A stretch of DNA of 63,085 nucleotides, counting the filler, from Chrysochromulina tobinii (Eukaryota): the NCBI GenBank assembly GCA_001275005.1. It is 4 parts of 4 records of this genome, joined end to end, with 100 filler letters (N's around TTAATTAATTAA, not from the genome) between each part and the next. Parts side by side here need not be neighbours in the genome. Positions count along the whole stretch, not along the records: positions 31,668 to 50,710 come from JWZX01000682.1; 3 more parts are not named here. One strand, 5' to 3'. This document shows positions 31,568-54,171 of the stretch, piece after piece (the stretch's first letter is position 1; each line of letters starts with the position of its first letter). Both the position numbers and the translations under genes were made by a program. The notes beneath the pieces were generated by a model. That model made no database searches. It saw only the letters and a list, made by a program, of their open reading frames with translations, and had not been told where the DNA came from.

Positions 31568-31667
31568 NNNNNNNNNNNNNNNNNNNNNNNNNNNNNNNNN
31601 NNNNNNNNNNNTTAATTAATTAANNNNNNNNNNNNNNNNNNNNNNNNNNNNNNNNNNNNNNNNNNNN
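31568..31667. other. Artificial contig linker
   Basis: 44 N + TTAATTAATTAA + 44 N. Confidence 0.99.
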
Positions 31668-34541: not shown

Positions 34542-35024
34542 GCCAACAGGGACGATAGGCGCGGCGCGCGCACGCGAAGGGCGCGCGCAGCATGACCATG
34601 AGCGATGAGCAGTGCTCTTGCTCTTCAACTTCATCCCCCACGTCCCCGCCGGCGCCGGCATGCCGCTGGACCTTGTCAACTTGACATCCCTAATTTAGTA
34701 TTTACTGTGTTTGGGGAATAAACAAAAATCAGCACAGAAAACCATTATAGAAAAGCGAGGGCCGAGGCGCGAGCGGCGCGGGGCGATGCCAACGATCCTG
34801 AACGCTGCGTCCTGCGAACAACGGTCCGCTAGATCCGCCTGATCGCTGCTGGATCGACGCAGCCCGCACGATCGCACGTTCACGTTGATGACTATTGGCA
34901 GTCAGTTCACAGTTGGGGATGATGTGCAGTACAGGACTACTAAAAGAAAGTGCTGTGGGGGTAGATTGCCCAGGATTGCGTTGATGACGACCCTGGACCG
35001 CTCCGATGACGGTCCTCATCTATT

Positions 35025-35963: not shown

Positions 35964-36548
35964 GCTTAGACGGCTCGAGGTGAGCGAGGTGTGGCGCAGA
36001 GCCAGCCCAGCTGCATCGCACATCTCTTGACCTTGACAGCTGTGCCGGAGACCTTTCCGAAAGCGGGGCTTTCACCCGAAACCGGTAAAGGGCGATCGCC
36101 GCGATCGGATCTCTGATGTCGTGTCGCGGCGCTGGCGCTCTGCTCACTGGACACTGCTCGGCTGGGACCCGCGTAGACGAGTGGAGTATTAAATTTTATC
36201 TTCCAATTATAACTGTGACAATTTTGGTGTTGATAGATCTCTTCTAAATGAACTAACAACCATCGAAGGCCTCGAATCGCACATGCTCAATACACCAAGC
36301 GTCTAGTACGTTCATCAGGCGAAACCGTTAACCCCAACCGGGACATCCGGAGCGGAGTCCCGCGACACACAGCAGAGACCGCGCTCGGCCCCCTCGCTGT
36401 CTGGCGAACAAACTTAATGAAACTGATGGCTGATGTAGCGAGACTGCGAATAAGCGTGACGTGCATGTGAATGTCGTGCAGAGGTCAGGCAGAGCAGCCG
36501 TCGAATACCTTCGTGGAAGTTGAGCGCTTTTTGCATGCGGCAACGTCA

Positions 36549-37616
36549 TCAGACGCCCGTGGCCGTGATCAACGCACCAGTAGAGCGCCGGCGATCGAAG
36601 CTAGCCTGGCGGCGCATCGCCACCCTCTGCGCCAAGGTGCGCGGCGTCGCCAAGGGCTCCGCATCGGCCGCGGTCGCCGCTGCTGCCGCGCCCTTTCCGG
36701 CGAGGGCCGGGACGGTGCTGCTGTCCATTGGTGCGCTCGGCGGGAAAGTAACGCACACGGGCTCGATGACGTCGACTGCGCCGAGCTGCCGCCCGGCGCA
36801 AAACGGCTCGAACTCGATCTCACTCGACGAGGACGTGTCGTCGGCCACGCCCTCGCCATTCTCCCTCGCAGTGTGCAGCTCGAACTGTCGTTCGAACTCG
36901 GCGATGCCGCTGTCGATGGCGATGCCGCCGCCAAAGACGGCGGACACGTGGCCGTCCTTGCCCACGATGGACTCGTAGCCACTCGAGGGCACGACCTTCG
37001 GCGGGCGGAAGCTGGAGGCGCCCTTCGAGAAGGACGTCACCACAGGCCGGTGGGGCGGCACCGCCACTCGCCCGACCTGCGGACGGGCGGGCGGCGCCTT
37101 TGCCTCGTTGGCCTCGTCGTCGCCGCCAACGTGGGGCCCCACGTCGCTGCTGCTGCTGCTGGGCGCACCCTGCTGCAGCTGGTACAGGAGTCGCATCGTT
37201 TCCGCCTTGCGCGCCGCCTCCTGCTCGGCCGCAGCGTCGTGGTCAAAGTACTCTAGCGGGTCCTCTTCCTCGTCCTCGTCGTCCTCCTCCTCTTCCTGGT
37301 CGGCATCGCAGCCGCCGCCCGTGTCGGAGTTGGCACAGTACATCGTGTTCATCCGGCGCGTGAGCTCCATTTGCTGCTCGAGCCAGCGCGCCTCGTCAAA
37401 ATCATCCTCCAGCTCTGCCTCCTCGCGCGATGTCTTTGCCCCCTTCTTCTTCGATTTTTTCTTGCTGGAGGCCTTCTTCTTCTTCGCAGGCTTCGGCGAG
37501 GGTTCCGCCGCCGTGCTCCCCGATGGCACACTGTTAGGCGTCGCCAGCGGCGAGCGCGTCAACGTTGGCTCCGCCTTACGTGACGAAGACGCACCCCTCC
37601 TCAGCAAGGAGGACAT
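36549..37616 (-). CDS. Hypothetical low-complexity protein (Lys-rich and acidic tracts)
   Basis: 355-aa ATG ORF with coding-like codon usage, KKKK NLS-like tract and poly-E/D; no domain recognised. Confidence 0.65.
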   Translation of the reverse strand: MSSLLRRGASSSRKAEPTLTRSPLATPNSVPSGSTAAEPSPKPAKKKKASSKKKSKKKGAKTSREEAELEDDFDEARWLEQQMELTRRMNTMYCANSDTGGGCDADQEEEEDDEDEEEDPLEYFDHDAAAEQEAARKAETMRLLYQLQQGAPSSSSSDVGPHVGGDDEANEAKAPPARPQVGRVAVPPHRPVVTSFSKGASSFRPPKVVPSSGYESIVGKDGHVSAVFGGGIAIDSGIAEFERQFELHTARENGEGVADDTSSSSEIEFEPFCAGRQLGAVDVIEPVCVTFPPSAPMDSSTVPALAGKGAAAAATAADAEPLATPRTLAQRVAMRRQASFDRRRSTGALITATGV

Positions 37617-37663
37617 GGGAACTACCAAAAATCCTCTGGTTCTCGTGCCAATTTCTTCGTTTC

Positions 37664-37740
37664 TTTTGGCCCCTCTTACAGTAAGAATTTCCTAGAGATT
37701 TGTTTTTTTGGCCCCTTTTACGGTAGGAATTTCCTAGAGA
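37664..37740. repeat. 42-bp-period imperfect duplication in a divergent intergenic region
   Basis: TTTTGGCCCCTCTTACAGTAAGAATTTCCTAGAGA versus TTTTGGCCCCTTTTACGGTAGGAATTTCCTAGAGA. Confidence 0.85.
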
Positions 37741-37875
37741 CATTGCGATACGATACTCGAAAGTGTCCACCCATTTCTTCCGCCGTTTTGGCCACTTTCA
37801 CTGCATGTTATTGCGTGACGCTCCGGAAATGTGTCGCACACTTTCTTCGGGCTTCCTCAATAGCCGCAATCGCTT

Positions 37876-40800
37876 ATGCGGCTGCTGCTCTTCCTCCCGA
37901 CCGCCGTGGCCGCTGCGCAGTCTCTGCGCGTGACGCCCGCGGTCGTCGACGTACATGGCGGCGTCGAGATCGAGCTCGCGCGCGACGGCAGCGCCTTTGA
38001 GTCACCCGTGCACGGCGAGGTGCACTGCCTCTTCGGCGTCGATTCGGTGCCGGGCGGGCTGCATCCAGACGGACGCTCAATCGTGTGCACGGTGCCGCCC
38101 GCGCCTGGCGGCCAGCTCGGCACCGTCGATGTCTCCGTACGCATCGACCCGCTCCCGGACGACCAGGGCAGCGCCACGGTCGTCTATTACGACGCCTCAA
38201 GCCTGCCAGTCATCTCCGAGGTGCGGCCACACTCGGCAGAGGGCGCGAGCCCGTCGCACGTGCGTGTGTTCGGATCCAATTTTGCACCGCTGTCTCACAC
38301 CATGCGCTGTTCCTTTGGCGAGGACGGGCCGACGGACGCCTCGTACGTCTCACCGACGGAGCTCGCTTGTGCTTCGCCAGAGGTGCCCAACGGTCCGAGC
38401 CATTCGGTTGACCTGCGCGTGTCGCTCGACGGCCGGCTCTTCTCGGCGCCCGGCGCGGAGACCTTCACCTTCACTAACATGCGCGTGCCGCCGAGCCTCA
38501 GCCGCCTCTCGCCGCAAATCGGGCCTGTGAGCGGTGGCATTGAGCTCACTCTCGTCGGACTGGGCTTCTCGCCGGCCCACGGCCGGCTGCAGTGCCTCTT
38601 CGAGGGTCTGCAAGCGACGGCGGCGTCCTTTGACTCGACCGAGCGCGTGCGCTGCGCCTCGCCCGCTGTGAGCAGCTCTGCCAAGGGCCCGGTCCGCTCC
38701 GTCGACGTGGCAGTCGGCGCCGTCGGCGGCGAGCCGCCTGTGTCGTCCAGCCTGCCGTTTACCTTCTACGACCCGGCACGGCCGCCCTCGATCAGTGAGG
38801 TGGTGCCTGCGTATGGCGACGTGCACGCGCCTCCGAGCATCGTGCTGCACGGTGCAGGCTTCGCTCCCGTGGGCGACCGCCTCGTCTGTCGTTTCGGCGG
38901 TGCGCAGCTCACCGCCGCCACGTTCGTGTCGACGTCCTCCATTCGCTGTGCAGCGCCGCCCGCCTCTGCGCTTACTGTCGGTCGCGTGAGTGTGATGGCG
39001 GCCATCGACGGCGGCGCCGCGCTGCCGCGCAAGGGATCTCCCGCCGAGATCGCCGCCGCCTCGCTCCTCATTTACGACGCCTCAGAGCCGCCGGTCGCCT
39101 CATCGGTCACGCCCGTCTTTGCGTCCGTCGGCGGAGGCGCCGTCCTCACGGTGAGCGGCGCCAACTTCGCGCCGACCCGACACCTAGGGTGTGTCTTTGA
39201 GCAAGTCGGCCTCACGCCCGCGACGCTCCTCGATGCGAGCACCCTCCGCTGCGCCGCGCCGCCCACCACCGCGCCGCTGACCACCAAGCTCGCCGTGACG
39301 CTCGACCACCTCACCCTCTCGGTGCCTGCGATCCCGTTCACCTTCCATGACCCGGAGGCAGGCGCCCTCGTGAGCGCGGTGCACCCGCCGTTTGTGCACT
39401 ACGCCGGCGGCACGCCGCTCGAGGTACGCGTGCACAACTACGATCCCACCGCCGACGTGGCTGCATGCGTCTTCTACCTCCCTGCGCACACGGACGGTGC
39501 CATTGCGCCTGCGCTCGCGACGGCGGCGACTCACACGATGGGTGAGACGGTGCGTTGCTTGAGCCCGCATGCCCCGCGGAGCTCGGTCGGCTCAGTGCGT
39601 CTGCGGCTGTGGGCCGCGCGTGCCGCGGAGCTCTCCCAGGGCGCACGCACATCGGATGGGCTCCTACAGGAAGCTCTGGATGCCGCCTCGGCTCCCGAGC
39701 GCGCACCCCAATTCGTTCTCTCGGCCGGCTCGGTCCCGCTCACCCTGTACGACATGGAGCGGCCGCCCACGGCGACGCGCCTAGTGCCGCGCTACGCCGG
39801 GCTGCCCACCGACGGCTCACCGGTCGATGTGCTCGTGCTCGGTACCAATTTTGCGCCCACGGACCTCGGCCTCGTGTGCCAGATTGACGAGCGCGGTTCC
39901 GGCGGGCCGGCGCGCTTCGTCAACGGCACCGCCGTCAGCTGCTCAGTGCCGCTGCCCGACGCGCCAAAGGACACGACCGTACGCGTCTCGGCCGACGGCG
40001 GCGTCACGTGGTCCGCGGCGCTGCCGTTCACCTTTTACGATCCGGACACGGCGCCTGTTGTTTTGGCCTCCCCGGCGGCGGTCGACGTCGCCGCGCTCGC
40101 GGCTTCAGGTGGGCAGGCAAGGCTGAGCCTGTGGGGATCCAACTTCGCGCCGACGGACGGTCTGCGCTGCGGCTTTGGCAGCTTCGACGATCACGGCGCG
40201 CAGGAGAGCGTGGTCGCGACCTTCGTCTCCGCCACCGAGATTGAGTGCCTGGCGCCGAGCCATTGGTGGGGCGTCGCGCGAGTGCGCGCGACGCACGACG
40301 GCGGCCAATATTGGTCGGAGGCGGGGCCTTCGATCACGCCGTACAATACGTCGCAGCAGGGGCTCATCACCTCGGTTGAGCCCGCCGCTCTGCCCGTCGA
40401 CGAGTCGGGTAGCGGTGGCGTGTCGCTCCGCGGCAAGCACTTCTTCCGACCGGCAGTCGATGGTGGCAAAAGCAGCGCCGCCGCGTTGCGCGTGTGCCGC
40501 TTCGTGCCGCTCCCGGCCGAGAGTTTGGGGGCTCGCCGTCGTGCGAGCACACACACACACACACACACCATACACGCGAGTCCGTCCACGAGTCTCGCCC
40601 CTGCCGCCGCGCCGTCCACCGTCGTGTCGCCCGCCACCATCTTCGACGACACGCACGCGCGCTGCGCGACGCCGACCGCTCTGCAGCCGCAGACGGCTGC
40701 GGTTTCGCTGAGCCTCGATGGGGGCGTCACCTTCGGCACTGCGGCCATCGTCACCTTCTATGACGACTCGTCGCCGCCTACCCTGCTCAGTGCGACGCCC

Positions 40801-43800
40801 ACCGACGGCGAGCGCTCGCAGGCAACGCTCGTCACGCTGCGTGGCTTCAACTTCAACCCGCCAAAGGCGCCGTCCGACTTGCTTTGCCGCTTCGGCGCCG
40901 TCGTCGCGCCTGCGACGTTTGTGCACTCGACATCGATCTCGTGCTACGCTCCGTCTGTGACGACCCTCGGTCAAGTGGCGCTCGACTTGTCCGACGACGG
41001 CGGACGCTCGTGGCCCACCGCCACCGCTCCGTCGAGTGCGAAGACGGCCGTGCCGAGCTCGATGCAGTTCGTGTACTACGATTCGGCAGTGCCGCCCACG
41101 CTCTCGTCCGCCGCACCCGCGGGCGCGTCCGTGGCGGGCGGCACTGCGCTCACGCTCTACGGCACGAATTTCGTGCCGCCGCGCGGCTACACCGCCCCCT
41201 CGGCCCGCGCGTCGTGCGTCTTCACCGCCGACGGCGCGATGCTCGCGAGCACGCCAGCGAGCTTTGGCTCGTTTGGGCACGTGGCCTGCTCCTCGCCTGC
41301 CGCCGCGAGCTCGAAGACCGACGCGACCCTCAGGGTCGTCTCAGCCGACGGCCTCTCCTCTTTGGGAATCCCCTTCACATTCTACGACGCAAGCGTGCCT
41401 CCCGCCCTCGTCTCGGTCACACCGGCCGGCCTGCCGCTTGGGAGCCGGCCTGTCACGTTGCAAGTGCACGGGCGCGGCTTCGCCCCCGTGGGCCTGCAGT
41501 GCCATTTTGGCAGGATGGTACCGACACCCGCGACCTTTGCCACCGCCTCACTCGTGCTCTGCAAGTCGCCCGGCGACGATGCCGGGTTCAGCGGCCCAAT
41601 TTCGCTGCCGCTCGTCGTCAGCCGCGACGGTGTCCGCTCCGATTTTCGCCTTGACGGCAATGCCGCCGACGCCGACGTCGACGCCGCAACGAGCGTGTCT
41701 CTGACCTTCTTTGAGCCGGACGCTATCCCGTCGACGACGAGCGCGCGCCCGCTAGCGGTCGACGTGCACGGCGGCACTACGCTCCTCCTTCATGGCACGG
41801 GGTTTCGTCCCGGAGGCTCCGAGATGAGGTGTACCATCGGCGGCTTGCACGTGCCCGCGCACTTCATCTCGCTCACTGAGGCGCGATGTGACGCCCCAAT
41901 GGGTGAACCCACCTGGGCCGGCTCCGCAGCGACGGTGCCCGTGTGCCTCGTGTACCACGACGGCGACAGCGGCCAGTGCGGCGCGCGCGTCACCTACAGT
42001 GATCCCACGGCCCCACCCGAGTTGATTGCGGTCTCGCCACGGTTGCTGACCCTCGGCTCGTCGGCCGTCATCTCGCTAAGCGGTGCCAATTTCGCACCGA
42101 CTGGTGCGCAGCTCGTGTGCCGCTTCGGCGGCCGCTCCGCCTCGCCCGTGCCCGCCTCGTTTGTGAGCGGCGATCAGGTGCTCTGCAACGCGCCGCCCGC
42201 AACGAGCCCGGCCACCACCACGCTCCAGATCTCCACCGACGGCGGCGCGAGCTTCTCGAGCGGGCTGCCGTTTGCCTACTACGATGCGACGCGCCCCGCG
42301 GAACTAGAGCGCGTGTGGCCACCCGTCGCTGGCCTGAAGGCACAAACCCGGCTGATGCTCACCGGCATCAACTTTGGGCCGACCGACGCGTTCGCGTGCC
42401 ACTTCGGCGCGCTCCCGCCTACGGCAGCGACGTACATCAACTCCTCGGCCGCCGTGTGCCACGCGCCCGCCTCGCCGACGGTCCAGTCGGTCGCCCTCTC
42501 CCTCACCCTCGACGGCACTACATGGTCGACGCGCACGTCCGACTTCACCTTCTACGACACCAGCGCGCCGCCCGCGGTCGAGGCCCTCTCGCGCGCCTTT
42601 GGCCGCGCCGACGGGGAGGACGGCGAACTGCTGACGCTCACCGGCTCCAATTTTGCGCCCACCGGCGCGGCGCTGCGCTGCCTCTTTGCGCCGCTGCCGG
42701 ATGCAGGCGCCGTCGCGAGCGAGGGCGCGGATGGCGACGAGAACGAGTTTGAAGGTCAGCCCGAACGCGCCTATCTGGGCTCCGGCCGCTTCCAGCGCCA
42801 GCCGGGTGCGCCAGTGTCGGCTGCGGCCACTTTCATCTCGATCACCCAGATCCGGTGTGCCGCGCCCATGACGGCACGCCCGTCCACCGCCGCGGTCTCG
42901 GCGAGCACCGACGGCGTGAGCTTCGGGCGCTCCACCGCCAACTATACGTACTACGACCCGAAGCTCACGCCCGTCGTCTCGCGCGTCGCGCCCGCGTACG
43001 GCGCGTACCTGTCGTCGACGGCTGTGACCGTGTACGGGCTCAACTTTGCACCAACCAGCTTGGGGCTGCACGTGCGCTTTGGCGACCTCGGCGTGAGCCG
43101 CGCGACCTTCGTCTCGTCGTCGATGGCGCTCGCGCGCACACCTATCCCATCCGCGGGTATCGAGTCGCTCTCGGTACCTGTCGAGGTGGCGCTCACGCCC
43201 GACGGCTTTGGCTCCGTGCCCTCTATTGCGGCGGTCGCCACGCCGGCGCTCTTCTCCTTCCACAACCCCTTCTCGCCGCCGCGGATCACGCAGATCAGCC
43301 CCACGAACCACCGGTGCGGCGACGGCGGCGCGTACGTGCGCGATGTGCGCACCAACGAGCGCATCGAGGTCGCGCGGCATGCGGTCGTCACCATCGAGGG
43401 CGCCAACTTTGCGCCAATGAAGCGGCTGAGCTGCAACTACCGGCGCACGGGCGAGACGCTCTTCGAGCAGTTTGAGCACTCGGTGCCCGCCTTTTTCCGC
43501 TCGGCGAGCGAGATCCGCTGCCCGATCCCTGCGATCACTTATGCGGACGACGGCAGCACGCGTACGTTGCAGATGTTCTTCTCCGTCTCCAACGACGGGG
43601 AGAATTACCGCTGGTCCAACTTTGTGTTCACGTACGAGGGCGGCTGCGAGCTGCCCACGTTCACGCACAGGATGTACAGGATCGTATACTCGCTGCTGAG
43701 CCTCCTTGCCGTCATCGTCGCGCTGCTGCTCGTGCTCGTCGTGTGCCGGCGCAACACAACGGTGCGCGCCCTGAACAAGGTCCTCTTCCGCGCGGTCGGC

Positions 43801-45858
43801 CTGCTGCCCGACGGTGCCGATGGTGCCGACGGCTCCGATAATGCCGGCTTCGTGGGCTACTTTTTCTCGCCGCGAGCGTCGCCCACAAAGGGCGACGGCG
43901 GCGGCGGTGGCCAGTGGCAGCGGCTCGTCGAGGAGGATGAGGAGGCTGGGGCTCCGGATGAGCGGAAACGGCGCCTCCTCGGCACAGGGACGCTCGAGGT
44001 GAGCATCCAGCGTGCCACGCGCCTGATGGCGGGCGACGCGGAGACGGGCCTCTCCGATCCGTACGTGTTACTCCAGATGAGTGGACAGCAAGACTGGCGC
44101 ACCAGGGTCGTGCCGCGCACGCTCGACCCGATCTGGAATGAGTCGCATCGCGTCGTGGTGGGCACGCTCAAAACGGTGCTCCAGTCTTCGTTAACCCTGA
44201 CGGTGATGGACCAGGACATCGGGCGCGACGCGGACAACTACCTGGGCGAGCTGGGCGTCGACCTGCAGCCGCTGCGCGATCGTGAGCGGATTATCCTCGA
44301 GCGCATGCCTCTCACGGCTGGCGGTGAGGGCACCATCACGGTTGAGGTGCGATGGATCCCCGACGCTTCTCCCGCCGCGCGTCAGCTCTTCAGCAGGACT
44401 GCCTCGGCGCAGCGCGGCAGCCGTGCCGATGAAACGTTCAAGGACTGGTGGGAGGCAGCCTCGCCGGTGCTCGGAGGCGCCTTCGATAAGATGAAGAGCG
44501 CGGTCAGCGAGGCCTCGCCCGTGATCGCGGCTAAGGTGAAGAGCTTCGTCGGTCTTGATGCCGAGGGTCAGCCGGTCGGCGCCGATGCCGCCTCGGACCA
44601 CGTGCCGGCGGCAGCGCCGCCGCCGCCAGCGCCGCCGCCGCCGCCGCCAGCGCCGCCGCTGCCGGAGGCGGTACCCACAAGCACACAGCCGTTGGGTCGC
44701 TCGCAGCCGCCAACGGCGGAGCGTTTACGTCAGCGGGGTACTCTCGAGGTGATGATCCTGAGCGCGGAAGGGCTGGTCGGTGGCGTGGCCGGTGCGCCGC
44801 CGAGTCCGATGGTCTCTTTGAAGCTCGGCGGGCGCAAGCTGTGGAAGAGCTCCGTACAGCGCTCAGCCAACCCCGACTGGGGCGAGGTGATGGCGGTCGA
44901 GGGGACCGTTGGTGAGCTGATCGCCGAACCGATGATCCTCAAGCTCATCGACCGCGATGCGCCTTCGTCGAGTGCGACCTCGGCGCAAGACGCCGTGGGA
45001 GGCCTCGCGGTGAGCCTCGCACCGCTCACGACGGCGTCTGCGATCGACTTTTTCCAGCAGCAGCTCGGGGCACCCGCGCCGCGCGGCACGACTATCTCGT
45101 TTACGGTCACGTTTGCGCCCGCGCCGCCGCGCCCGCCGCCGCCGCTCACAGTCCTCTCTCCTCCGCCCGCTGCCTCACCCAACCCTTCGGTGGCCGCGAG
45201 CACGGCCACCTCGGTGGCAGCCTCCCCCTCGAAGCTGGCCTCGACGCAGGACCGCGGCCAGGGCCGCATCAGCACGCCCCCCGCGTCGGCGATCGCCGAG
45301 ACGAGGAGGGCGGCCGCAGCGGCGGTCGCAGCAGCGGTCGCAGCAGCGGGCGCACCCGAGGACACGGCTGCCGGCACGCCCACGCCCGTGCCTGGGACCC
45401 CAAGCCGGCCGAGTCTCACTGGGACACTCGAGGTGCACCTGGTGCGCGCGAACGAGCTCATGTCGTCGGATTCCAACGGCATGTCCGACCCGTACGTGAC
45501 GCTCAAGGTGGGCAAGCACAAAGCGTGGAAGTCGTCGGTGCAGCAGAAGACGATCCACCCTGTGTGGGACGAGACGATGCGCATGGAGCACGTACGCCTT
45601 GATGAGGTGTGCGAGTCCATCCTGCAGATCAAGGTCTTCGACAAGGACTTTTTGGGCATGGGCGATGATCGGCTCGGGAACAAGCGCTTGCCGCTCTTTG
45701 CCCTCGCGCGCGAGCCCAACTACATGCTGCAGCTCCTCGACGAGCCGCTCGATGACGCCACTTGCGGCACCATCACGGTGCTCGTGCGCTTCGTCCCTGA
45801 TGGTTCGTTGGCTGCGCCGCCGCCCGAGACCGAGGCGAATGAAGTCTCCGCCCCTTAA
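37876..45858 (+). CDS. Giant type I membrane protein: signal peptide, ~18 IPT/TIG repeats, TM, three cytoplasmic C2 domains (2660 aa)
   Basis: Signal MRLLLFLPTAVAAAQ; repeated P..G...GG..LT..G.NFAP...C.FG...A.F.S...C.P...FTFYD units; TM about 43681-43746; C2 domains about 43985-44360, 44737-45120 and 45421-45800. Confidence 0.9.
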   Translation: MRLLLFLPTAVAAAQSLRVTPAVVDVHGGVEIELARDGSAFESPVHGEVHCLFGVDSVPGGLHPDGRSIVCTVPPAPGGQLGTVDVSVRIDPLPDDQGSATVVYYDASSLPVISEVRPHSAEGASPSHVRVFGSNFAPLSHTMRCSFGEDGPTDASYVSPTELACASPEVPNGPSHSVDLRVSLDGRLFSAPGAETFTFTNMRVPPSLSRLSPQIGPVSGGIELTLVGLGFSPAHGRLQCLFEGLQATAASFDSTERVRCASPAVSSSAKGPVRSVDVAVGAVGGEPPVSSSLPFTFYDPARPPSISEVVPAYGDVHAPPSIVLHGAGFAPVGDRLVCRFGGAQLTAATFVSTSSIRCAAPPASALTVGRVSVMAAIDGGAALPRKGSPAEIAAASLLIYDASEPPVASSVTPVFASVGGGAVLTVSGANFAPTRHLGCVFEQVGLTPATLLDASTLRCAAPPTTAPLTTKLAVTLDHLTLSVPAIPFTFHDPEAGALVSAVHPPFVHYAGGTPLEVRVHNYDPTADVAACVFYLPAHTDGAIAPALATAATHTMGETVRCLSPHAPRSSVGSVRLRLWAARAAELSQGARTSDGLLQEALDAASAPERAPQFVLSAGSVPLTLYDMERPPTATRLVPRYAGLPTDGSPVDVLVLGTNFAPTDLGLVCQIDERGSGGPARFVNGTAVSCSVPLPDAPKDTTVRVSADGGVTWSAALPFTFYDPDTAPVVLASPAAVDVAALAASGGQARLSLWGSNFAPTDGLRCGFGSFDDHGAQESVVATFVSATEIECLAPSHWWGVARVRATHDGGQYWSEAGPSITPYNTSQQGLITSVEPAALPVDESGSGGVSLRGKHFFRPAVDGGKSSAAALRVCRFVPLPAESLGARRRASTHTHTHTIHASPSTSLAPAAAPSTVVSPATIFDDTHARCATPTALQPQTAAVSLSLDGGVTFGTAAIVTFYDDSSPPTLLSATPTDGERSQATLVTLRGFNFNPPKAPSDLLCRFGAVVAPATFVHSTSISCYAPSVTTLGQVALDLSDDGGRSWPTATAPSSAKTAVPSSMQFVYYDSAVPPTLSSAAPAGASVAGGTALTLYGTNFVPPRGYTAPSARASCVFTADGAMLASTPASFGSFGHVACSSPAAASSKTDATLRVVSADGLSSLGIPFTFYDASVPPALVSVTPAGLPLGSRPVTLQVHGRGFAPVGLQCHFGRMVPTPATFATASLVLCKSPGDDAGFSGPISLPLVVSRDGVRSDFRLDGNAADADVDAATSVSLTFFEPDAIPSTTSARPLAVDVHGGTTLLLHGTGFRPGGSEMRCTIGGLHVPAHFISLTEARCDAPMGEPTWAGSAATVPVCLVYHDGDSGQCGARVTYSDPTAPPELIAVSPRLLTLGSSAVISLSGANFAPTGAQLVCRFGGRSASPVPASFVSGDQVLCNAPPATSPATTTLQISTDGGASFSSGLPFAYYDATRPAELERVWPPVAGLKAQTRLMLTGINFGPTDAFACHFGALPPTAATYINSSAAVCHAPASPTVQSVALSLTLDGTTWSTRTSDFTFYDTSAPPAVEALSRAFGRADGEDGELLTLTGSNFAPTGAALRCLFAPLPDAGAVASEGADGDENEFEGQPERAYLGSGRFQRQPGAPVSAAATFISITQIRCAAPMTARPSTAAVSASTDGVSFGRSTANYTYYDPKLTPVVSRVAPAYGAYLSSTAVTVYGLNFAPTSLGLHVRFGDLGVSRATFVSSSMALARTPIPSAGIESLSVPVEVALTPDGFGSVPSIAAVATPALFSFHNPFSPPRITQISPTNHRCGDGGAYVRDVRTNERIEVARHAVVTIEGANFAPMKRLSCNYRRTGETLFEQFEHSVPAFFRSASEIRCPIPAITYADDGSTRTLQMFFSVSNDGENYRWSNFVFTYEGGCELPTFTHRMYRIVYSLLSLLAVIVALLLVLVVCRRNTTVRALNKVLFRAVGLLPDGADGADGSDNAGFVGYFFSPRASPTKGDGGGGGQWQRLVEEDEEAGAPDERKRRLLGTGTLEVSIQRATRLMAGDAETGLSDPYVLLQMSGQQDWRTRVVPRTLDPIWNESHRVVVGTLKTVLQSSLTLTVMDQDIGRDADNYLGELGVDLQPLRDRERIILERMPLTAGGEGTITVEVRWIPDASPAARQLFSRTASAQRGSRADETFKDWWEAASPVLGGAFDKMKSAVSEASPVIAAKVKSFVGLDAEGQPVGADAASDHVPAAAPPPPAPPPPPPAPPLPEAVPTSTQPLGRSQPPTAERLRQRGTLEVMILSAEGLVGGVAGAPPSPMVSLKLGGRKLWKSSVQRSANPDWGEVMAVEGTVGELIAEPMILKLIDRDAPSSSATSAQDAVGGLAVSLAPLTTASAIDFFQQQLGAPAPRGTTISFTVTFAPAPPRPPPPLTVLSPPPAASPNPSVAASTATSVAASPSKLASTQDRGQGRISTPPASAIAETRRAAAAAVAAAVAAAGAPEDTAAGTPTPVPGTPSRPSLTGTLEVHLVRANELMSSDSNGMSDPYVTLKVGKHKAWKSSVQQKTIHPVWDETMRMEHVRLDEVCESILQIKVFDKDFLGMGDDRLGNKRLPLFALAREPNYMLQLLDEPLDDATCGTITVLVRFVPDGSLAAPPPETEANEVSAP

Positions 45859-45998
45859 CGCCCACGACGGCGTCCCCTTGACGGCGCCCGAGACCGAGGC
45901 GAATGAAGTCTCCGCCCCTTAACGCCCACGACGGCGTCCCCTTGACGAATGAAGTCTCCGCCCCTTAACGCCCACGACGGCGTCCCCTTGACGGCGCC
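45821..45998 (+). repeat. 64-bp tandem duplication (2 full + 1 partial) spanning the stop codon of the IPT-C2 gene
   Basis: CGCCCGAGACCGAGGCGAATGAAGTCTCCGCCCCTTAACGCCCACGACGGCGTCCCCTTGACG at 45821 and 45885; partial copy from 45946. Confidence 0.9.
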
Positions 45999-46565
45999 AC
46001 CGCCTTCGGCGCCGCCGATCGCATGGACTCGGATCCGCGAATACGTATCAGCCCCCGGGCGAGAGGCCCCACTCCCCTTCCCCACAGCCGCCTCGCTGCC
46101 GTCAGAGAGCCATGAGCACGCAAGGCGCGGTTAGGCGCGGTCCCAAAAGGGTTGAAGCCGTGGGCACCGCGCAGCCACAGGTCCAGGAGTGAAAAGGGGT
46201 GAATGCGTGTCCGGTGGCGGTGCTGGGATGTTCGTTGAACTCATGAAGATCTCGATTTCGATGTTTGGTGGCGAAAGAAACACGCACAGCTCAACGCACC
46301 GCAGCGGTGCGTACTTCACGGTGGTACGGACGCCGCACTGAAATTTGTATACGACCGGAACGGCATCACAGTCTATGCACTATCCGCAATCCGGGGTACG
46401 GGTAGAAGTCGACATGCAAGGACACCGGAGACCAGACCGTGCGGTGTATACACATTGCGGTATCCACACAATGTGTGCGGCCAACGTCGATACTTCGTGA
46501 GCGCTCAGCGCCCATGGCAGCGCCCCTCCAACCAAGCCCCTCCCTCGTTCTCTCGAGCCTCGTGC

Positions 46566-49500
46566 TCAGGCAGGCACGCTGTCGTTGCGACGCTTTGAGC
46601 ATGCCTTTTCGACATGAGACTGCAGGAAGACGACAAGATCAGGCGGGAACCTGGCCGCATCAGTTGTCGGTCCGGCATCGCGGCCAAGCTGCTTGTGGCA
46701 GGCAGGGCCTACCTTGCAAGGAGTTTCCTCGCTGCAGATCTTCTCTCCATTTTCTAGCTCCTTGATCAAGCTCTCGATATTTGTCCAGAAGAATGTAGGC
46801 TTCTCGTACTCCATCCCAAACTTGCAGTACGTCAGCTCCACTTGAGTTGCGCCAATTCCGCCATGATCCACAGGGACCTGCATCATCTTGAAGTGGATGA
46901 GCTTCTGCGCGTTCCCAACTGGGGCCTCCACAGTAAATTTGAAATCACTGTTGCCAGAGCGGCGCCGCTGGTTTTGACACACGTCCAAGATCCACTGTAG
47001 ATCGCTATTGTACTCTTTGCAGCAATCGTCGTAGCCGAGAAACGCAACTGGCATGTCGGTTTCTTTGCGCGGGTGCGCGGAGCCTGCTGCCCTGCTCACT
47101 GAGGTGCACTGTGGGCTGAAATGCGCGTAGTCGAGAGTGGGAAGGTCCTCAGGCTTGATGTCGCGGCACATGCAGAGTTCAAAGTAGACCGTGGCCTTCG
47201 AATTGGCCGCTGCCTGGCGCATCTGCGCTGCAGCCTCACCCGGCGGAGCGCCCACGCGCGGCTGAGTGAGCACATCGTTGTAATCAGGCGCTTTGCAGTC
47301 GCGCTCTATGATGAGCACCTCCGCACCCGACGAGTTGCAGCACTGAGTGGCAAGGCGGCCGGAGCCGGCAAAGGCCTCCATGATGCGCATCTTTCGCAGC
47401 GTCGTTCTCCGGCAAGGGAAGACCCTATTAGGCTGAACTGTGGGCCGCCTGACAGCAGCAGCAGGCGTGGCAGTTGCAGCCTCCTCATCGTCGTTTGCTG
47501 CTTGCCCCGCTGCACGCGGCGCCACGCACAGCGCCTCAGCCTCGCCCTCCTGCCCCAATGGGCCGTGGACCGCGCCATTTGCTGCGTCATCCACTTCTCC
47601 GCCAGCCGCCCCAGCCTCATCCTCTTCGCCCTCCTGCCCCAATGGGCCGTGGACCGCGCCATTTGCTGCGTCATCCACTTCTCCGCCAGCCGCCCCAGCC
47701 TCAGCATCCTCTTCGCCCTCCTGCCCCAACGGGCCGTGGACCGCGCCATTTGCTGCGTCATCAACTTCTCCGTCAGCCGTCCCAGCCTCATCCTCCTCTT
47801 CTTCTTCGCAAGATGCGCACGCGCTCCGCTTAATCGTCTTGGAACGCTTCTGATTCGTGCTGACTGCGATCATTGGGCGCTTGGACGTGGCTCCTGCACT
47901 GGTCGGTGGTAGTGGTGCGTCAGCGGTCACATCATTCAGCACCAGCCACTCACTCACTGGTGCAACCAGAATCGTGAGTGAGTGGCTGGCGTTCCTGCGC
48001 TCCTCGACAGCATCCTGGAATACGGTCCAGGGCAACATAAAGGACGGCGGCAAAGAGTTCAGGCCCATGTGCTTCATCAATCCGTCGAGATGCCCAAACG
48101 CCTGGTTTCGCCTACCCTGCAGCTCGAAGCCGCCCTTCAGCACCCACCAGTTGCGCGGCTGCTCAATGCGCTTATCGCTCAATATCATCACCTCGGGTAT
48201 CACGCGTGCACGGCAGTGTCTAAAGATCTCGCTCACGAGCCTAGTAGCTACGCCTTGCTTCTCGTAAGACGCCTTGACCGCAAACAGAAGCACCTCGAGC
48301 GCAATCGATTTGGAGCGTGAATTGGCGCGCACAATGCATGTGCACGCCGCCGCTATAACCTCCTCGCCCTGCACAATCAGTGCAAGGCCGAGGTTGTCAT
48401 GTTGGGAGTCGCCGGCTTGATTGTCCGCAAGCGGCTTGCTCTTCCCAGGCCGATAGTTGATCGCAACCTTCCCGAACTTGGACAAACCCAGTAGGCCCGG
48501 TACCAGCGCTTTGAACCACTCAACGTGGCCGAAGCGCTCTTCAAGCACGTCCTTCGCGCCCTGCAAGAGCTCTGGCTGCGTCTGCTTGAGGTCCTTGATC
48601 GTCTCGACGACTCCCTTTGCCCAACTTGGGATGTAATGCGACTCGTTCACCTCGTCGCTGGCCACCTCATTGTCCTCTTGCTGCACCTGGCGCAGCTCCT
48701 TCTCGTCATCCTCGCTGACAGCGGGCATGCGCGGACAATGCGGCATGTGCGTCTTAAGTCTCTTGAACGCCTGATGGCACCAAAGGCACGGGGAGGTTGC
48801 CGGCGCTCCTGCCGGCGCTCCCTCCGGCGGTTCCCTCGCCGCCTGCACCGGCTGCCCCTCCTCAGCTGCAGCTTCCTTGTCCTGATAGACACCATCCTCC
48901 CCCTGCAGCGTCGATGTGCTCGGGCGCGCATGAAGCTTGCAATTGCCCGGGTGTTCGAAACCACGCCCACACCGCGAATGTATGTAGCAGTGATCGAGTT
49001 CGCGGCATTTTTCTATACTCGGGTCATCCTCTGCATCCGGCGTTCCCTCCGTGATGCGCTTGCGATTTGGTAGTCGCTGGAGCTTCTTATGAGTCCCATA
49101 AGGCCGAAGGCGCACGACATCGCACACCAGCTCTTCCAAGACCTCGCGAGTCTTTGGATCGAGGAGATCAACGTTGAAGTGCCCAATGGCCATCTTCTTC
49201 GCAATGCGAGCCATCTGCCATGCACCGTCAAAAAGCACTTCCACCTCACTCGTACTTGGCAACAAATCCAGCCACGTCAACGGGGGCGGCGCCGGTCGTG
49301 TTCGCACTGTGCTGCGCATCTGCTGCTGCGACTTGAAGGCTCGCACCTCAAACCAGGTCGCAAAGGGTGGAATGAACAGGCCAGAGCCGGCGACACCAAA
49401 AGGATCGCTCTGGTGCTTGGCATGTGGCCAGGGCACGTTACGCACCCACTCAACGCCCTCGCTACTCAACGTAACGTGAGACTCGATCCAGCTTCTGTCG

Positions 49501-50710
49501 CCAGCCACTTTGGTGAGAATGATAGAGTCCCCATCGGCATTGAAGTGTGCTACTGTGGCCGGGCGCCACTTCATATGCTGGTGCCCCTCGTTGTCCTCAC
49601 CATCAATCTCACAGTGTGTTTCGACCCACACTCGGCTGCCAGCGACCAAGTTTGCAGCGCGGGCCTGAGCGTCAGCCAGCTGCAGCTGCGTTGGCGCAAA
49701 ACGGCTTGCCGTGGGCCCCGATGGAACCGGAGCACGAGCATTAGGCATGCAAGGAGGCAAGAGCACAATGCCATCCATGATGTAGGTGCTCTTGGTCCGA
49801 CGCTCGTTGAGCTGCCTGGTGGCGGCGGGAGGCCGCCCAAAGCGATCAGCAATGTCCTCGAGCGTCTCGTCATGACTGGCCTGATGGAACTCAGGCAGCA
49901 TGATGCACGAGTACGCCCTCAGCTTGCCAGTAAGGTTGAGGTCGCTGCTCGCAATCAGCTGCAGATAAGTTGCCAGCATAGGGTGGAGCGCACGCACGTC
50001 CTCCTGGAATTCAAGGATGACCTCAAGCACCGCCGCTGCAACCGCCTGATCGCTGTAGCTTGCATTCACGATGCTGCGGATGGTCTCGTTCTCCTTGCAC
50101 ACATACCGCCATGCGCCTGCCGGTGGCTGCGGCTCGTCGAGCGCCACATATGTGCCGCGAGTGCCTTTTGCCGCGAGTGCTGGACAGTCCAGCACGATCC
50201 CGGAGCGCCATGTGTCGTCTTCCAGTACCTCGACGAGGTCGTCCGGCTGCGCTGGAACCAGCCGGATGTGCGGCAGCGGTGGCCACTGGTACATGCTGAG
50301 TACTTTGGCGATTGCAGCCGTCACAAGCTTGGTCACGGCCGTAGGCGGCACGGTGAGCGTCGTGCATGCGCAAGCTGTGCAGTGCCAATCGCCCTCAGGG
50401 ATGGTCGAGAGCAGAGGTGTCACGCAATAAATGTGGTACCCTAGGTCGCAGCCATCGCAAATAAGCATCCGAGACTCGTCAGCCCCACCACCGCAGATAC
50501 CGCACGACATTGTTTCGATGTGCATCTCATACTCCTCAGCGAGCTTCATGGCCTCCTCAACAGCGGTTTTGTATTCCATCTGATCAGCCTGACTGTAGAC
50601 ACAGTGCGACGTATTCTTGAGCTTCTTGATCTCGCCGCTTTTGTCGCAAGGGTGTCGATCTGACCATGTCTTGAGGTCTTTCTCATTGAACACGTCACAG
50701 GGAGCCGTCG
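46566..50710 (-). CDS. Multidomain chromatin protein: PHD finger, LysM-like and Tudor/Agenet-like modules, GNAT acetyltransferase, C-terminal C5 DNA methyltransferase-like domain (5' truncated)
   Basis: PHD CGIC..MLICDGCDLGYHIYC..IPEGDWHCTAC; GNAT EVLLFAVKASYEKQGVATRL..WW..GF; MTase motifs EAFAGSG (I), SPQCTSVS (IV), TVEAP (VI), YCKFG..KPTFFWTN (VIII), ARFPPDL (X). The frame stays open to the contig edge. Confidence 0.8.
47545..47800. repeat. ~78-81-bp coding tandem repeat x3
   Basis: Encodes EEDEAGAAGGEVDDAANGAVHGPLGQEG units in the PHD-GNAT-MTase ORF. Confidence 0.9.
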
Positions 50711-50810
50711 NNNNNNNNNNNNNNNNNNNNNNNNNNNNNNNNNNNNNNNNNNNNTTAATTAATTAANNNNNNNNNNNNNNNNNNNNNNNNNNNNNNNNNN
50801 NNNNNNNNNN
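50711..50810. other. Artificial contig linker
   Basis: 44 N + TTAATTAATTAA + 44 N. Confidence 0.99.
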
Positions 50811-53496
50811 CGGCAGTGGTGAGGGCGAGGGCGGTGACTGCGAGGGCGAGGGCGGTGGAGGCGAGGGCGAGGGCGGTGGAGGCGAGGGCGAGGGCGGCGG
50901 CGGAGAGGGCGGCGGCGGCGAGGGTGGAGGCGGCGGAGAGAGTGGCGGCGGTGCCGGGCAAGTTGAGACTGTGCCAGAGACGTCGGTGGGGATTGTTGGC
51001 CAGGAGCAGACTGTGCCACCCTGAACATAGACACCGCCACCGGAGGCTGTGTTCCCACTGATGGTGCTCGATAAGATGGACACTCTGCCACTCGAGACAT
51101 AGACCGCCGCAGCTGTGTTGCCAGTGATGGTGCTCGATGAGATGGCCACTGTGCCGGAATTGACGGCGACACCGCCGCCTTGCCATCCAGCTGTGTTGCC
51201 ACTGATAGTGCACGATGAGATGGCCACTGTGCCTCCATAGACTGTGACACCACCGCCATAGTAACCTGTATTCCCGTAGATCGAGGAAGACGTTATCGTG
51301 ACCGTGCCGGACTCGACATAGACACCGCCTCCATAGGTAGCTGTATTCCCACTGATGGTGCACGATGAGATGACCACAGTGCTTCCCGTGACAGCGACAC
51401 CACCGCCATAGGTAGCTGTGTTGGAGTAGAACTGGGAGTTCACGATTGACACTGTGCCGTAAGGGTTGGAGACCCTTACACCACCGCCCCATCCGCTAGC
51501 TGTGTTCCCATAGATCGAAGAAAACGTTATCATGACCGTGCCAGAAGAGACGAGGATACCGCCTCCCTCCCCATATTGTTCGATGTTGCCTCCCGTGATG
51601 TTGAGCCCGATCAGTTGCACGACGGCGGCCGATGAGCCTGGGCTGATGTTCAGCACACGGCGCGGACTCCAGGCACTCGCTTGTGCGTGCAGCACGACCG
51701 AGCCTGCCACCGCCGCCTCGATGATGACGCTCCTGGTGATGCTGAGCTCGGCGGTGAGGTAGTAGGTCCCGGAGGCTAGGACGATGCGGCCGACGGCGGT
51801 GTTGGCGAGTGCACTGGTCAGGCCGGCAGTGTTGCTCACCGCCGCGGTCCCCGGCGGATACGGCGGCGGCGGCGGCGGCAACGATGCCGATGGCGGCAGT
51901 GGTGAGGGCGAGGGCGGTGACTGCGAGGGCGAGGGCGGTGGAGGCGAGGGCGAGGGCGGTGGAGGCGAGGGCGAGGGCGGCAAGCGCGGCGGCGAGGGCG
52001 GTGCCTTGGGATACATGTATGGCGCGTAGCTGATGGGGGTTATGACAAGTTGCCCATTTCCTGAATGAACTCCTTGCTGATTGAGCTCGATGTGGCCAGA
52101 AGCGAAGCTCGACCCTCCGCCAGCACCGCCCCCGCAAGTAGCACCCGGTTGAGAATCAAAGAATGCTGCGCCGCCAAAATACCCCCCCCCACCACCTGCA
52201 CAGTTGTACACGGTCGTGGGCACACACTGTCCGAAGCCATATCCGCCTCCATTTCCCAATCGGCCGTCACAACTCCCTGGGAAGTAAGGGGCAATGCCGC
52301 CCAGCAATTGGGTACCTCCTGTGTTGAGGCACTCCGCCATGTGCCCACCGCCACCGTTGCCACCAATTGGACCTCCTCCTGCGCCACCAGAAGACCAACT
52401 AGACGCTCCTCCACCACCGCCAGCGACGACCAGACGTGATGTGAGGTCGGTCAAACTGGTCCGGACGTCAGTTGCGCCGCCGCCAGGCGCAGCATTTAAC
52501 CATTGACCGGGATCAGGGGGCCGGCTTGGACCTCCTCCGTTGAATCCTCCCAGTATGGTCGAGATGGAGTAATCCGAATTGCGAGAGGCCCCTGCTCCGC
52601 CAACAAGGATATACAGCGTTTGACCGGCACTGACATTGATCAGCGCTGTGATACGGCCACCAAGACCTCCTGCGCCCCACTGGCCGGTGTTGTATCCTGT
52701 TCCTCCAGAGGCGCCATAAGCATCGATGCGAACCGAGGAAACAAATGGCGGAACGATGTAGGTCTGAGCCACACCGGAATACATGAATGTGGTCGCTGCT
52801 GGTATTGGTGGTCTTGAGGGCGATGGCGGTGGCGGCAACGGCGGCGACGGCAAAAATGGCGGTGATGGAGGCGACGCTGCCCCGCACCACGTGCGCATCA
52901 TCGAGACGAGCGGCGCTGGCGTGCTCGGCAGGCCGCCGCCGAGCCGCACGCCATCCAGCTGCGCCGGGCTGAGGGCGACGCCCCACACCAGCAGGTCCTT
53001 CATCTGGCCCGTGAACATCGGGTCGACAGACCAGTGGCTCTTGCCCACGTAGAGGTTCGAGCGGCTCACCGGCAGCGGAAAGCGCATCGACGACGTCGCC
53101 CCGACGCTCGCACCGTTCCAGTAGATCTGGGCGGGCCCGGAGGTGTCGGTGAGGCTCGCACGCGACTGCACGACCGCGACGTGAGTCCACACGTTTGCGG
53201 GGAATGATGGCGCCGAGCTTGCATAGAAGTGGGATTCGGAACTCCCATGAAACACCTGGTAGTACATTGGGGAATAAAATCCCAGGAGGACATTGTCTGC
53301 ATTTGGACCATAGCCGAAATCGATGACGCGATCCCAGGAATAGCCTGTCCTCGTGCGGTAGACCCACGCGCAGAGCGTGAAGCCAAGCCCCCCGCCGACG
53401 AGTCCGGTGCGCGACGTGGCCGTCAAGTAGGAGGTCGCCGCCCCGGTGAAGGTGTATGCGCCGCCGACGGCGCACGGAGAAGCCGGCGGCAGCGAG

Positions 53497-53528
<32 letters not shown>

Positions 53529-54171
53529 TGGCAGGAAAGGCGAGGGCGGCGGCGGCGGGCTCGGATCGGGCGATGGCGGTGGCGGCGAGGGTGGCGGAGG
53601 CGGTGATAGGTTCGGGCGGCTGGGGGGAAGGCGGCGGCGGCGAAAATGGAGGTCGAGGAGGAGATGGCGGCGACGCGCGGCATACGGCGCCATGATACGG
53701 AACAGGACATTGCCCATCGTTCCAGGCCCCACTCGCTAACATGAGGGCACAATTCTCACCGGTCCAGCCGTTTGTCTCACCAGGGGCCCAGTTGGAGTAG
53801 TCCCATGGAGTGCCGTCGGACCACCTCCAGGTGCCCTCGCTTACCGCGTCAGTCGCACCGATCCACGCGAAGGTGTTAGGGACGACGGCCCACACAGCGG
53901 CATTCTCTAGGGCGCTGTGGATGCTTGCGAGATCGCCGCCGAGAGCCTGGCACGCTGCGCGCCCAGCCGCCCACGAGCCGACGGTTGAAATGTAAACGAA
54001 TGGCGAGGGCGAGGGCGGCGGCGGCGAGGGCGAGGGCGGTGGCGGCGAGGGCGGCGATGGCAAAAGCGATGGGGGCGTTTGGCATTCAACGCTTGCCATC
54101 ATGTTGAAGCTGAGGAGCACAACCAGCCAGACTCTCCAGGGAGCACCTCCTGGCTGCGACAGCCCTCGCAT
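50811..54171 (-). CDS. Secreted/surface mosaic protein: C-type lectin, LamG/ConA-like, glycine-rich and beta-helix (Pmp-like) domains joined by SPPPP linkers; one frameshift near 53610-53630; 3' truncated
   Basis: Signal-like VWLVVLLSFNMMASVEC. C-lectin SWAAGRAACQALGGDLASIHS..WIG..WSDGT.WDYSNW..ENC..WND (frame 52513..55191). Then FTLCAWV..WTHVAVV..FTGQMKDL, YGASGG..GGGATDVR..LVVAGGGGG and SGNTA..GGGV repeats (frame 50763..53732). The start could be upstream, up to 54375. Confidence 0.75.

Follow-up and report, generated by a model that had tools for sequence, protein, structure and literature searches.

The stretch of DNA analyzed here—the window, 63,085 nucleotides (nt) of the genome of the haptophyte alga Chrysochromulina tobinii (GenBank assembly GCA_001275005.1)—consists of four contigs. 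On the third of these (31668–50710; 19,043 nt; JWZX01000682.1) lies a long gene for a protein with chromatin-reader domains, a GNAT-fold acetyltransferase-like domain and, at its C-terminus, a compact domain with the fold of C5-cytosine DNA methyltransferases (MTases). The window holds the 3′ 4.1 kb of this gene, at 46566–50710 on the minus strand, the strand on which all features of the gene given below are found. The frame (46566–50693) continues for 1375 codons without interruption to a stop codon at 46566–46568. At its other end it runs into the end of the contig at 50710, and so it is truncated at the 5′ side by the assembly, not by biology.

The remainder of the gene comes from elsewhere. 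Three metagenome loci, L001, L002 and L003, encode it at at least 99% identity, and two of them, L002 and L003, match the window exactly across the entire open reading frame (ORF) and supply 66 further N-terminal residues, for a product of 1441 amino acids (aa). L001 differs from the window ORF by 9 synonymous and 13 non-synonymous codons; with two loci identical and the third different at so few positions, the ratio of non-synonymous to synonymous change (dN/dS) is not usable. A gene model from Chrysochromulina parva, also of 1441 aa, shares a 90% cluster with the window protein. The open frame, the identical metagenome loci, and the lack of splice joints in contigs assembled from RNA libraries all mark this as one uninterrupted gene, very likely a nuclear gene of the alga. 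In the public record it appears as NCBI model KOO35982.1 (Ctob_010804, C. tobinii CCMP291; P0020 in our collection of relatives), a protein of 296 aa that matches parts of the ORF, is named only ‘N-acetyltransferase domain-containing protein’, and runs together pieces of the GNAT and MTase regions. The true frame is an uninterrupted 1441 codons; KOO35982.1 represents only a piece of it and hides the gene's architecture.

That architecture, from N- to C-terminus, is PWWP, PHD, a poorly assigned middle region with one sub-threshold Agenet-like segment, GNAT, an acidic repeat linker, and MTase. An initial annotation of this DNA, made from the sequence by inspection, had placed a PHD finger, a GNAT domain and a C5-MTase-like domain in one protein, and in this it was right; the full-length form adds the PWWP domain.

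The C-terminal domain occupies residues 1090–1375 (286 aa; 46569–47426). As a single sequence it matches no Pfam family at E ≤ 10, no NCBIfam model, and no sequence in the PDB. Modeled from the single sequence by AlphaFold2 it gives an unusable structure (predicted local distance difference test, pLDDT, 34); modeled with an alignment of 49 sequences, 48 of them drawn from the 127 relatives described below, it gives a confident one (pLDDT 92.3; predicted template modeling score, pTM, 0.91). Foldseek finds 155 matches to this model in the PDB at E ≤ 0.001. Among the 32 matches listed every one is a C5 DNA MTase, the best being DNMT3B (E 1.9e-7), accompanied by DNMT3A, M.HaeIII, M.MpeI and MET1. 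VIA-align, which is independent of Foldseek, was run against 48,161 chains, and ranks 1–18 all belong to the C5-MTase family: DNMT3B at Z 15.1 (root-mean-square deviation 3.6, over 213 residues), DNMT3A at 14.4, M.MpeI at 13.6, M.HhaI at 12.9, a prophage methylase at 12.7, and, also in these ranks, DIM-2, MET1, DNMT5, DNMT2 and DNMT1. The defining parts of the superfamily fold are present in the model—a Rossmann-like domain for S-adenosylmethionine (AdoMet), the catalytic loop that follows strand 4, and, packed against motif I, the C-terminal helix of motif X. A profile of the family, compared by HMMER, sets SPxC..FS upon GPPCQSWS of M.HaeIII, cysteine upon cysteine (E 0.011; M.HhaI, E 0.1). 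The domain is almost certainly a true homologue of the C5-MTases, and the fold that the initial annotation had expected is indeed there.

The sequence motifs named in that annotation, FAGSG, SPQC, EAP and CKFGMEYEKPTFFWTN, are likewise all where it had put them, and they can be followed through an alignment of 308 stored family proteins. This alignment is redundant, and its rows are counted only where the residue in question is present; the motif pattern is conserved throughout, and is thus not due to chance. Motif I (FAGSG; 47358–47372), the AdoMet-binding loop, keeps its central Gly in 232 of 235 rows, and the acidic residue of motif II, at the end of strand 2, is kept in 238 of 239. Motif IV (SPQC; 47106–47117) contains the predicted catalytic cysteine, Cys1196 of the window ORF, which is present in all 253 rows and aligns with the PCQ cysteine of M.HaeIII. 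In motif VI (46920–46928), EAP here and ENP or ENV in relatives, Glu is invariant (260/260) and Pro nearly so (259/261); the residue between them is Asn in 158 of the 260, Ala in 59, Gln in 34 and Ser in 9. The place taken in classical C5-MTases by motif VIII, QxRxR, is occupied by a CKFG..KPT..WTN block (CKFGMEYEKPTFFWTN; 46779–46826), of which the CKFG Cys is conserved in 279 of 280 rows, the KPT Lys in 273 of 279, and the KPT Thr in 273 of 280. At 46695–46736 lies a Cys/His-rich miniature target-recognition segment. Its C231 (257/260), C237 (202/240) and H244 (212/251) would, with the Cys of CKFG (Cys1290), make a likely CCCH zinc site. A C-terminal FPP..L helix is conserved, too.

Where these motifs come from is suggested by the company the domain keeps. 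Searched exhaustively with phmmer, a set of 1.84 billion representatives yielded 127 relatives at E ≤ 0.001, 52 of them at ≤1e-10 and 9 at ≤1e-30. Profile searches link the domain to more than 100 environmental, apparently eukaryotic proteins, where it is joined with PWWP, PHD, CXXC, GNAT or Tudor-like domains; among the relatives, organism names are attached to only a few: C. tobinii, C. parva, Cymbomonas and Picozoa. In the PHROGs collection, for which there is no curated cut-off, the window domain matches PHROG 757, ‘DNA methyltransferase’, at E 5.7e-5 (23.3 bits; residues 8–216 on positions 10–166 of a 247-position profile). The family profile recovers 78 proteins from 7,994 scored candidates, many of them of 193–240 aa; 18 of the 78 carry a precomputed match to PF00145, Pfam's model for these enzymes, and five were named site-specific DNA-cytosine methylase by the Joint Genome Institute. 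When nine compact relatives were scanned, eight exceeded the PF00145 gathering score and the ninth came to 21.7 bits against the required 22, with matches confined to the N-terminal third of the model. The compact phage proteins align with the window domain at ELFSGTG, WASPPC.xFS, IENP, YCKYG..(R/K)K(P/R)T.(I/L)W.N, (I/F)P..L, and the stretch rich in Cys and His. For one of these proteins, P0214, a collection of viral contigs holds relatives in 273 stretches. On one such contig (L058, 5917–7283) two compact methylase paralogues, both members of PHROG 757, stand in tandem upstream of a Sak-like annealing protein and exonuclease VIII, a phage recombination module. In the viral structure library BFVD, too, the best matches to the model are compact C5 methylases of 210–245 aa (top E 5.5e-11; target template modeling (TM) score 0.77), followed by a putative cytosine MTase of Tetraselmis virus 1 and a C5-MTase of phage phiH.

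Mobile elements supply a further setting. A multi-copy long terminal repeat (LTR) retrotransposon of Cymbomonas tetramitiformis, represented by P0228 and 18 cluster mates (P0283, of 2591 aa, for example), encodes a reverse transcriptase and ends C-terminally in the same MTase domain, which follows, in order, Integrase_H2C2, rve, SH3_Tf2-1 and Chromo domains and carries SPPC, IENP and YCKYG..KPT..WTN. Two proteins of Picozoa sp. SAG22 from EukProt (P0207 and P0258) combine an N6/N4 DNA methylase domain (PF01555; in P0258 a precomputed PF02086) with the N-terminal half of a compact C5-MTase. These two have the classical PPCQ motif; they are fragments from single-cell assemblies and may be of phage or bacterial origin.

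Taken with the PHROG 757 match, the phage methylases of about 200 aa that share its motifs, and the BFVD matches, the Cymbomonas polyproteins bear out an earlier impression that the domain resembles compact MTases of phages, viruses and transposons more than DNMT1 or DNMT3. The phage methylases of PHROG 757 comprise the same domain over nearly their full length (profile E 1e-20 to 1e-38), and they share with the window domain E.F.G.G, S-P-x-C..(F/Y)S, E-x-P, YCK(F/Y)G..K(P/R)T..W.N, C..C..H, and (F/I)P..L. There are differences. The phage forms stand alone, have SPPC and ENP, and occur among recombination genes, whereas the window domain has SPQC and EAP and an insert of 25–30 residues after motif II, and closes a chromatin protein of 1441 aa as its C-terminal module. 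We infer that the ancestor of the domain was a compact Dcm-like methylase of the phage or virus type, later built into chromatin proteins. A quick maximum-likelihood tree of 86 non-redundant rows, drawn with midpoint rooting but unrooted, supported by Shimodaira–Hasegawa-like approximate likelihood ratios (SH-aLRT) only, and labeled with motifs assigned roughly by regular expression, joins the window domain to others with ‘EAP’ in a clade of eight (support 98), inside a larger group of 25 with EQP or EAP (support 93). A separate clade of 24 rows, most of them with SPPC, comprises 17 compact and seven longer proteins (support 98); the long fused forms fall outside it. The root of this tree is unplaced, and so it shows no donor.

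The relatives also show how the domain has been put to use. Of the 127, the 66 longer ones were scanned with Pfam at E ≤ 0.01. No Pfam family at all was found in 43 of these; in the others PWWP and PHD domains occur in five proteins each (four above the gathering score in either case), GNAT in six (three above), Tudor-type domains in six (one above), RanBP zinc ribbons in three (none above), CXXC in one, at 51.5 bits and above the score, and PF00145 in one, P0129, at 22.2 bits and just above it. An iterated search with the GNAT region of the window protein revealed a homologous GNAT-like region ahead of the MTase in another 13 cluster representatives (P0047, P0196, P0005, P0068, P0017, P0071, P0051, P0090, P0076, P0043, P0016, P0059 and P0037), so that GNAT plus MTase is a conserved two-domain module. 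The whole order, from PWWP and PHD through to GNAT and MTase, is repeated in P0003, P0004 and P0005, which are 93, 81 and 38% identical to the window protein when aligned with MAFFT, or 89, 72 and 30% by BLASTP. The protein had been called lineage-specific at the outset, and this holds only with reservations: clusters with the complete architecture extend to identities as low as about 38%, and the MTase family is far wider.

Ahead of the MTase lies the GNAT-fold acetyltransferase-like domain, residues 690–905 (47979–48626), recognized by Pfam and by profile matches to acetyltransferases in the PDB. Its Acetyltransf_1 (PF00583) core, residues 763–832 (48198–48407), is just over the gathering score (21.3 bits, or 24.5 for the region alone; cut-off 20.7), and confirms a GNAT domain first put at about 48125–48380. 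Searched against the PDB, a profile of 11 such regions scores E 2.5e-4 with the N-acetyltransferase ARD1, 3.6e-4 with PA1377, and about 0.9 with Gcn5 chains. The window domain resembles the N-acetyltransferases (NAT/ARD1 and PA1377) in its PF00583 score, its motif A, and its NWW..GGF motif-B region, and Gcn5 is more distant from it than these. On such matches it does not look specifically Gcn5-like, and a specific assignment is not possible. GNAT motif A, Q/R-x-x-G-x-G/A, reads E-K-Q-G-V-A in the window protein, and its central Gly is kept in eight of 11 aligned relatives; P0004 and P0071 have Arg there, and P0005 has Lys. Between GNAT and MTase, three near-perfect tandem repeats of 84–87 nt (47542–47801) encode an acidic, Gly/Ala/Glu-rich linker that contains GEVDDAANGAVHGPLGQEGEED. 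P0003 has three copies of the repeat and P0004 has one, so linker length differs among relatives.

The reader domains are at the other end. In the full-length L003 product PWWP (PF00855) takes up residues 29–117 (E 2.7e-9; 37.9 bits, with a gathering cut-off of 25.6), and it is present, too, in P0002–P0005; the window itself retains only the C-terminal part, at 50541–50693, the remainder lying past the contig end. The PHD finger (PF00628; residues 64–108; 50370–50504) scores well above its cut-off (E 2.3e-10; 40.7 bits versus 24), at the place, about 50370–50505, where it had been predicted. Its nearest solved sequences are the first PHD fingers of KDM5B and KDM5A together with BAZ2A and BAZ2B, then WSTF, ATXR5, AIRE, CHD4 and UHRF1. 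Several of these are readers of histone H3 unmodified at lysine 4 (H3K4me0), and a similar role for the PHD finger of the window protein is a lead. The region between PHD and GNAT is harder to interpret. Tudor/Agenet-like segments had been reported there; what was found is a single Agenet match (PF05641; residues 482–531; 49101–49250) that falls short of its threshold (E 0.0064–0.038; 14.9–17.4 bits versus 27), with no match in a PDB sequence search. LysM-like segments, reported as well, found no support: there is no Pfam match to LysM (PF01476) at E ≤ 10, and the three weak matches of the PDB sequence search include no LysM chain. A further Pfam accession, PF28519.1, is precomputed for the full-length relatives P0002–P0004 and is absent from the Pfam copy used here; it is not recorded for proteins that consist of just the GNAT part, the MTase part, or both, and so probably belongs to the unassigned N-terminal or middle part.

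The gene appears in RNA libraries. Nineteen public runs contain this stretch, 14 of them recorded as RNA, and four were examined. A 1006-nt contig from a mixed-culture metatranscriptome covers 46333–47338 without a difference, from 233 nt past the stop codon to nearly the whole of the MTase domain, and a second run covers 46760–47260. A contig from a polyA-selected library (46380–47188) has five other letters and eight gap positions, and so comes from a near strain. In these four runs the RNA-library contigs show no intron joint anywhere in the gene. These assembled contigs give no sign that transcripts end ahead of the MTase domain; they cover nearly all of it and pass the stop.

What might such a protein do? 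On balance we favor the view that the domain is an active writer of 5-methylcytosine (5mC) in DNA, and that the PWWP-PHD-GNAT-MTase protein, the product of a nuclear gene, would methylate cytosines at chromatin sites selected by its readers. AdoMet would be bound through motifs I–III of the C-terminal domain. By analogy with M.HhaI, the cytosine would be flipped, Cys1196 would attack C6, and Glu1256 would protonate N3. Since a small Cys/His segment takes the place of a large target-recognition domain, little sequence specificity is to be expected. Instead, PWWP and PHD, perhaps with barrel domains of the middle region, would pick the chromatin region, like PWWP and ADD in DNMT3A and DNMT3B. 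GNAT would bind acetyl-CoA and might acetylate a nearby chromatin substrate or, alternatively, sense acetyl-CoA or regulate the enzyme. That it acetylates histones seems to us rather doubtful, and the dual writer of histone acetylation and DNA methylation that was first proposed is unproven.

A number of observations weigh against this reading. PF00145, whose gathering threshold is 22 bits, gives no match to the window domain at E ≤ 10. TM-scores to solved DNA methyltransferases (DNMTs) in the Foldseek search of the PDB are moderate, about 0.42, and in the VIA-align ranking unrelated Rossmann proteins start at Z 10.0, a gap of some five units below the best match. In motif IV, Pro and Cys are separated by one residue and no Gln follows the Cys as it does in PCQ. 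Motif VI has exchanged Asn for Ala in the clade to which the window protein belongs. QxRxR is absent, with CKFGMEYEKPTFFWTN in its place, a swap that is kept family-wide and extends to the phage forms that pass PF00145. The same fold, in DNMT2, acts on tRNA. With the motif A Gly replaced by Arg in P0004 and Lys in P0005, some members of the clade may not use acetyl-CoA. The H3K4me0 lead draws on nearest solved sequences. The RNA contigs are assemblies in which carry-over of DNA is possible; a control across the whole 19-kb contig (three RNA runs and one of unrecorded kind) found most bins covered, intergenic ones included, and is not decisive, and gaps in the cover of the gene within a single run carry no meaning. 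The occurrence of 5mC in this alga is itself a premise, presumed here. Biochemical data for compact members of the family were not found in the parts available of PMC9998398, PMC12344493, PMC5890265, PMC4738411, PMC3417536 or PMC6459981.

Some of these same observations would suit a domain that has lost or lowered its activity. Like DNMT3L, it might bind DNA, AdoMet or a partner methylase, and serve as a regulator or reader in a chromatin protein centered on GNAT. In motif VI, Ala stands for Asn throughout the clade linked to GNAT (59 of 260 rows); the Cys is not followed by Gln, and QxRxR is missing; PF00145 is blind to the domain; and DNMT3L itself turns up in the structural search (Z 9.4). 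Inactive paralogues of the DNMT3L kind, however, lack the nucleophilic Cys, the Glu, and the motif I and II residues, whereas all of these are kept, at the frequencies given above, in the window clade too. EAP, moreover, is conserved between proteins that are 45–56% identical in the domain, which speaks for a site in use. We consider a dead or weakened module unlikely.

About equally improbable, in our judgment, is an enzyme that is active on something other than duplex genomic DNA, whether RNA or tRNA, in the manner of DNMT2, or DNA that is single-stranded or being replicated, or one that transfers some other group. The fold search did return DNMT2 enzymes and a DNA C5-carboxymethyltransferase (Z 10.8–11.6), and a Cys/His-rich target-recognition part of some 45 residues is unlike those of sequence-specific DNA MTases. 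Against this, the domain has been fused repeatedly to PWWP, PHD, Tudor-like and CXXC domains, which points to the DNA of chromatin—CXXC binds CpG DNA—as does its fusion to the integrase and chromodomain of a retrotransposon, and its phage relatives lie among genes of DNA recombination.

The surroundings of the gene bear on whether it is a host gene or mobile cargo; they were read on both sides in L003 and, downstream, on the window's own contig. Upstream are genes for EF-hand, PDZ and ankyrin proteins, and an ORF of 684 aa without Pfam match. Downstream, and convergent, is an IPT/TIG-C2 gene of 2660 aa, followed by further ORFs, including one for a leucine-rich repeat protein. The GC content of third codon positions (GC3) is 0.68 in the gene and 0.75–0.84 in four neighboring ORFs of the same contig, a lower bias that the initial annotation had noticed by eye. 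The type of MTase, moreover, is otherwise at home in phages, giant-virus proteins and Cymbomonas retrotransposons, and the C. parva virus CpV-BQ2 has 13–14 predicted DNA methyltransferases, with a putative cytosine methyltransferase in one associated polinton-like virus (PMC6459981, seen in part). That the gene is the cargo of a large mobile element or integrated virus, as had been suggested, is nonetheless most improbable: the neighbors are ordinary cellular genes, neither transposase, integrase nor capsid genes, nor any others of viral kind, turned up in 10 kb upstream or 15 kb downstream, the neighborhood is the same in L003 and, downstream, on the window contig, three parts of the protein used as tblastn queries found no second copy in the window but only the gene itself, GC3 is low along the whole gene (0.60–0.76 per 100 codons) and not in the MTase part alone, and the readers are modules typical of eukaryotic chromatin.

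The contigs of the window are separated by spacers of the form N44-TTAATTAATTAA-N44, at 16746–16845, 31568–31667 and 50711–50810. These are artificial and the stretch is not one molecule, so features cannot be read across the joins. The last of them, the joiner at 50711–50810, borders the gene and is not biological; ORFs that span it were rejected as artefacts. On the adjoining contig a long ORF (50811–53732, minus strand) with PSPPPP stretches and Gly-rich repeats of the type GGGxxVxxSxxTISGNTA reaches the spacer. It is unrelated to the gene.

Seen as an active DNA methylase with readers attached, the protein invites comparison with DNMT3A and DNMT3B, the best structural matches to its catalytic domain. 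The logic of their architecture is alike: an N-terminal PWWP, a PHD-type zinc finger, and a C-terminal C5-MTase with a small target-recognition part. Yet the window protein has a plain PHD instead of ADD, and GNAT and a long middle region between its readers and its MTase. Its catalytic domain fails to match PF00145, lacks PCQ/PCN, ENV, and RxR in their DNMT3 form, and is 9–12% identical in the structural alignments. In sequence searches it groups with the compact methylases of phages rather than with DNMT3, and the likeness in architecture would therefore be convergent.

The literature offers several points of contact; the papers cited were available in part, and what we say of them applies to those parts. 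‘ChloroDNMTs’ with PWWP domains, and ‘orphan’ DNMTs, have been described from a collection gathered with PF00145 at E < 1e-4 (PMC12344493). Like the window protein, these are cytosine MTases of restricted distribution that gained PWWP independently of animal DNMT3; unlike them, the window domain goes undetected by PF00145 at E ≤ 10. A survey that applied PF00145 at E = 1 to the MMETSP found DNMT3 to be seemingly absent from the haptophytes studied (PMC9998398). DNMTs carried by retrotransposons are documented in dinoflagellates and charophytes, from candidates again collected with PF00145 (PMC5890265). The Cymbomonas element, which bears an MTase of the window type, is by its predicted domains a further case of these, and the name Cymbomonas does not occur in that paper; around the window gene, in contrast, there are no repeats and no genes for reverse transcriptase or integrase. 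On current understanding, eukaryotes took up their DNA methylases from bacterial restriction-modification and dcm genes more than 10 times (PMC3417536), so that another acquisition would be an event of a known kind. A review of N6-adenine methylation covers other haptophyte methylases and not this one (PMC4738411). Neither the GNAT fusion nor this type of motif is mentioned in the parts available of PMC9998398, PMC12344493 and PMC5890265, and the word ‘acetyltransferase’ occurs nowhere in the first two. In the literature searched we found no prior description of this protein or its family, which is not proof that none exists.

What we have, then, appears to be a divergent branch of C5 methylases, invisible to PF00145, with a new architecture and no published description that we could find. 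It is possible, and we offer this tentatively, that the branch amounts to an unrecognized family of eukaryotic DNMTs, derived from compact Dcm-like enzymes of phages and wired repeatedly to PWWP, PHD, CXXC and Tudor domains, and that its PWWP-PHD-GNAT-MTase form in haptophytes is a de novo 5mC writer coupled, within one polypeptide, to acetylation that depends on acetyl-CoA. Surveys of DNMTs rely on PF00145 (PMC9998398, PMC12344493, PMC5890265), and the window domain escapes this model despite its fold and intact nucleophile. If domains of this kind are active, the lineages that have them carry 5mC writers that are missing from current inventories, and haptophytes would have arrived by convergence at a DNMT3-like combination of reader and writer, built on a catalytic core that came from phages. 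The steady pairing with GNAT in this clade would represent a new physical link between a module that uses acetyl-CoA and the methylation of DNA.

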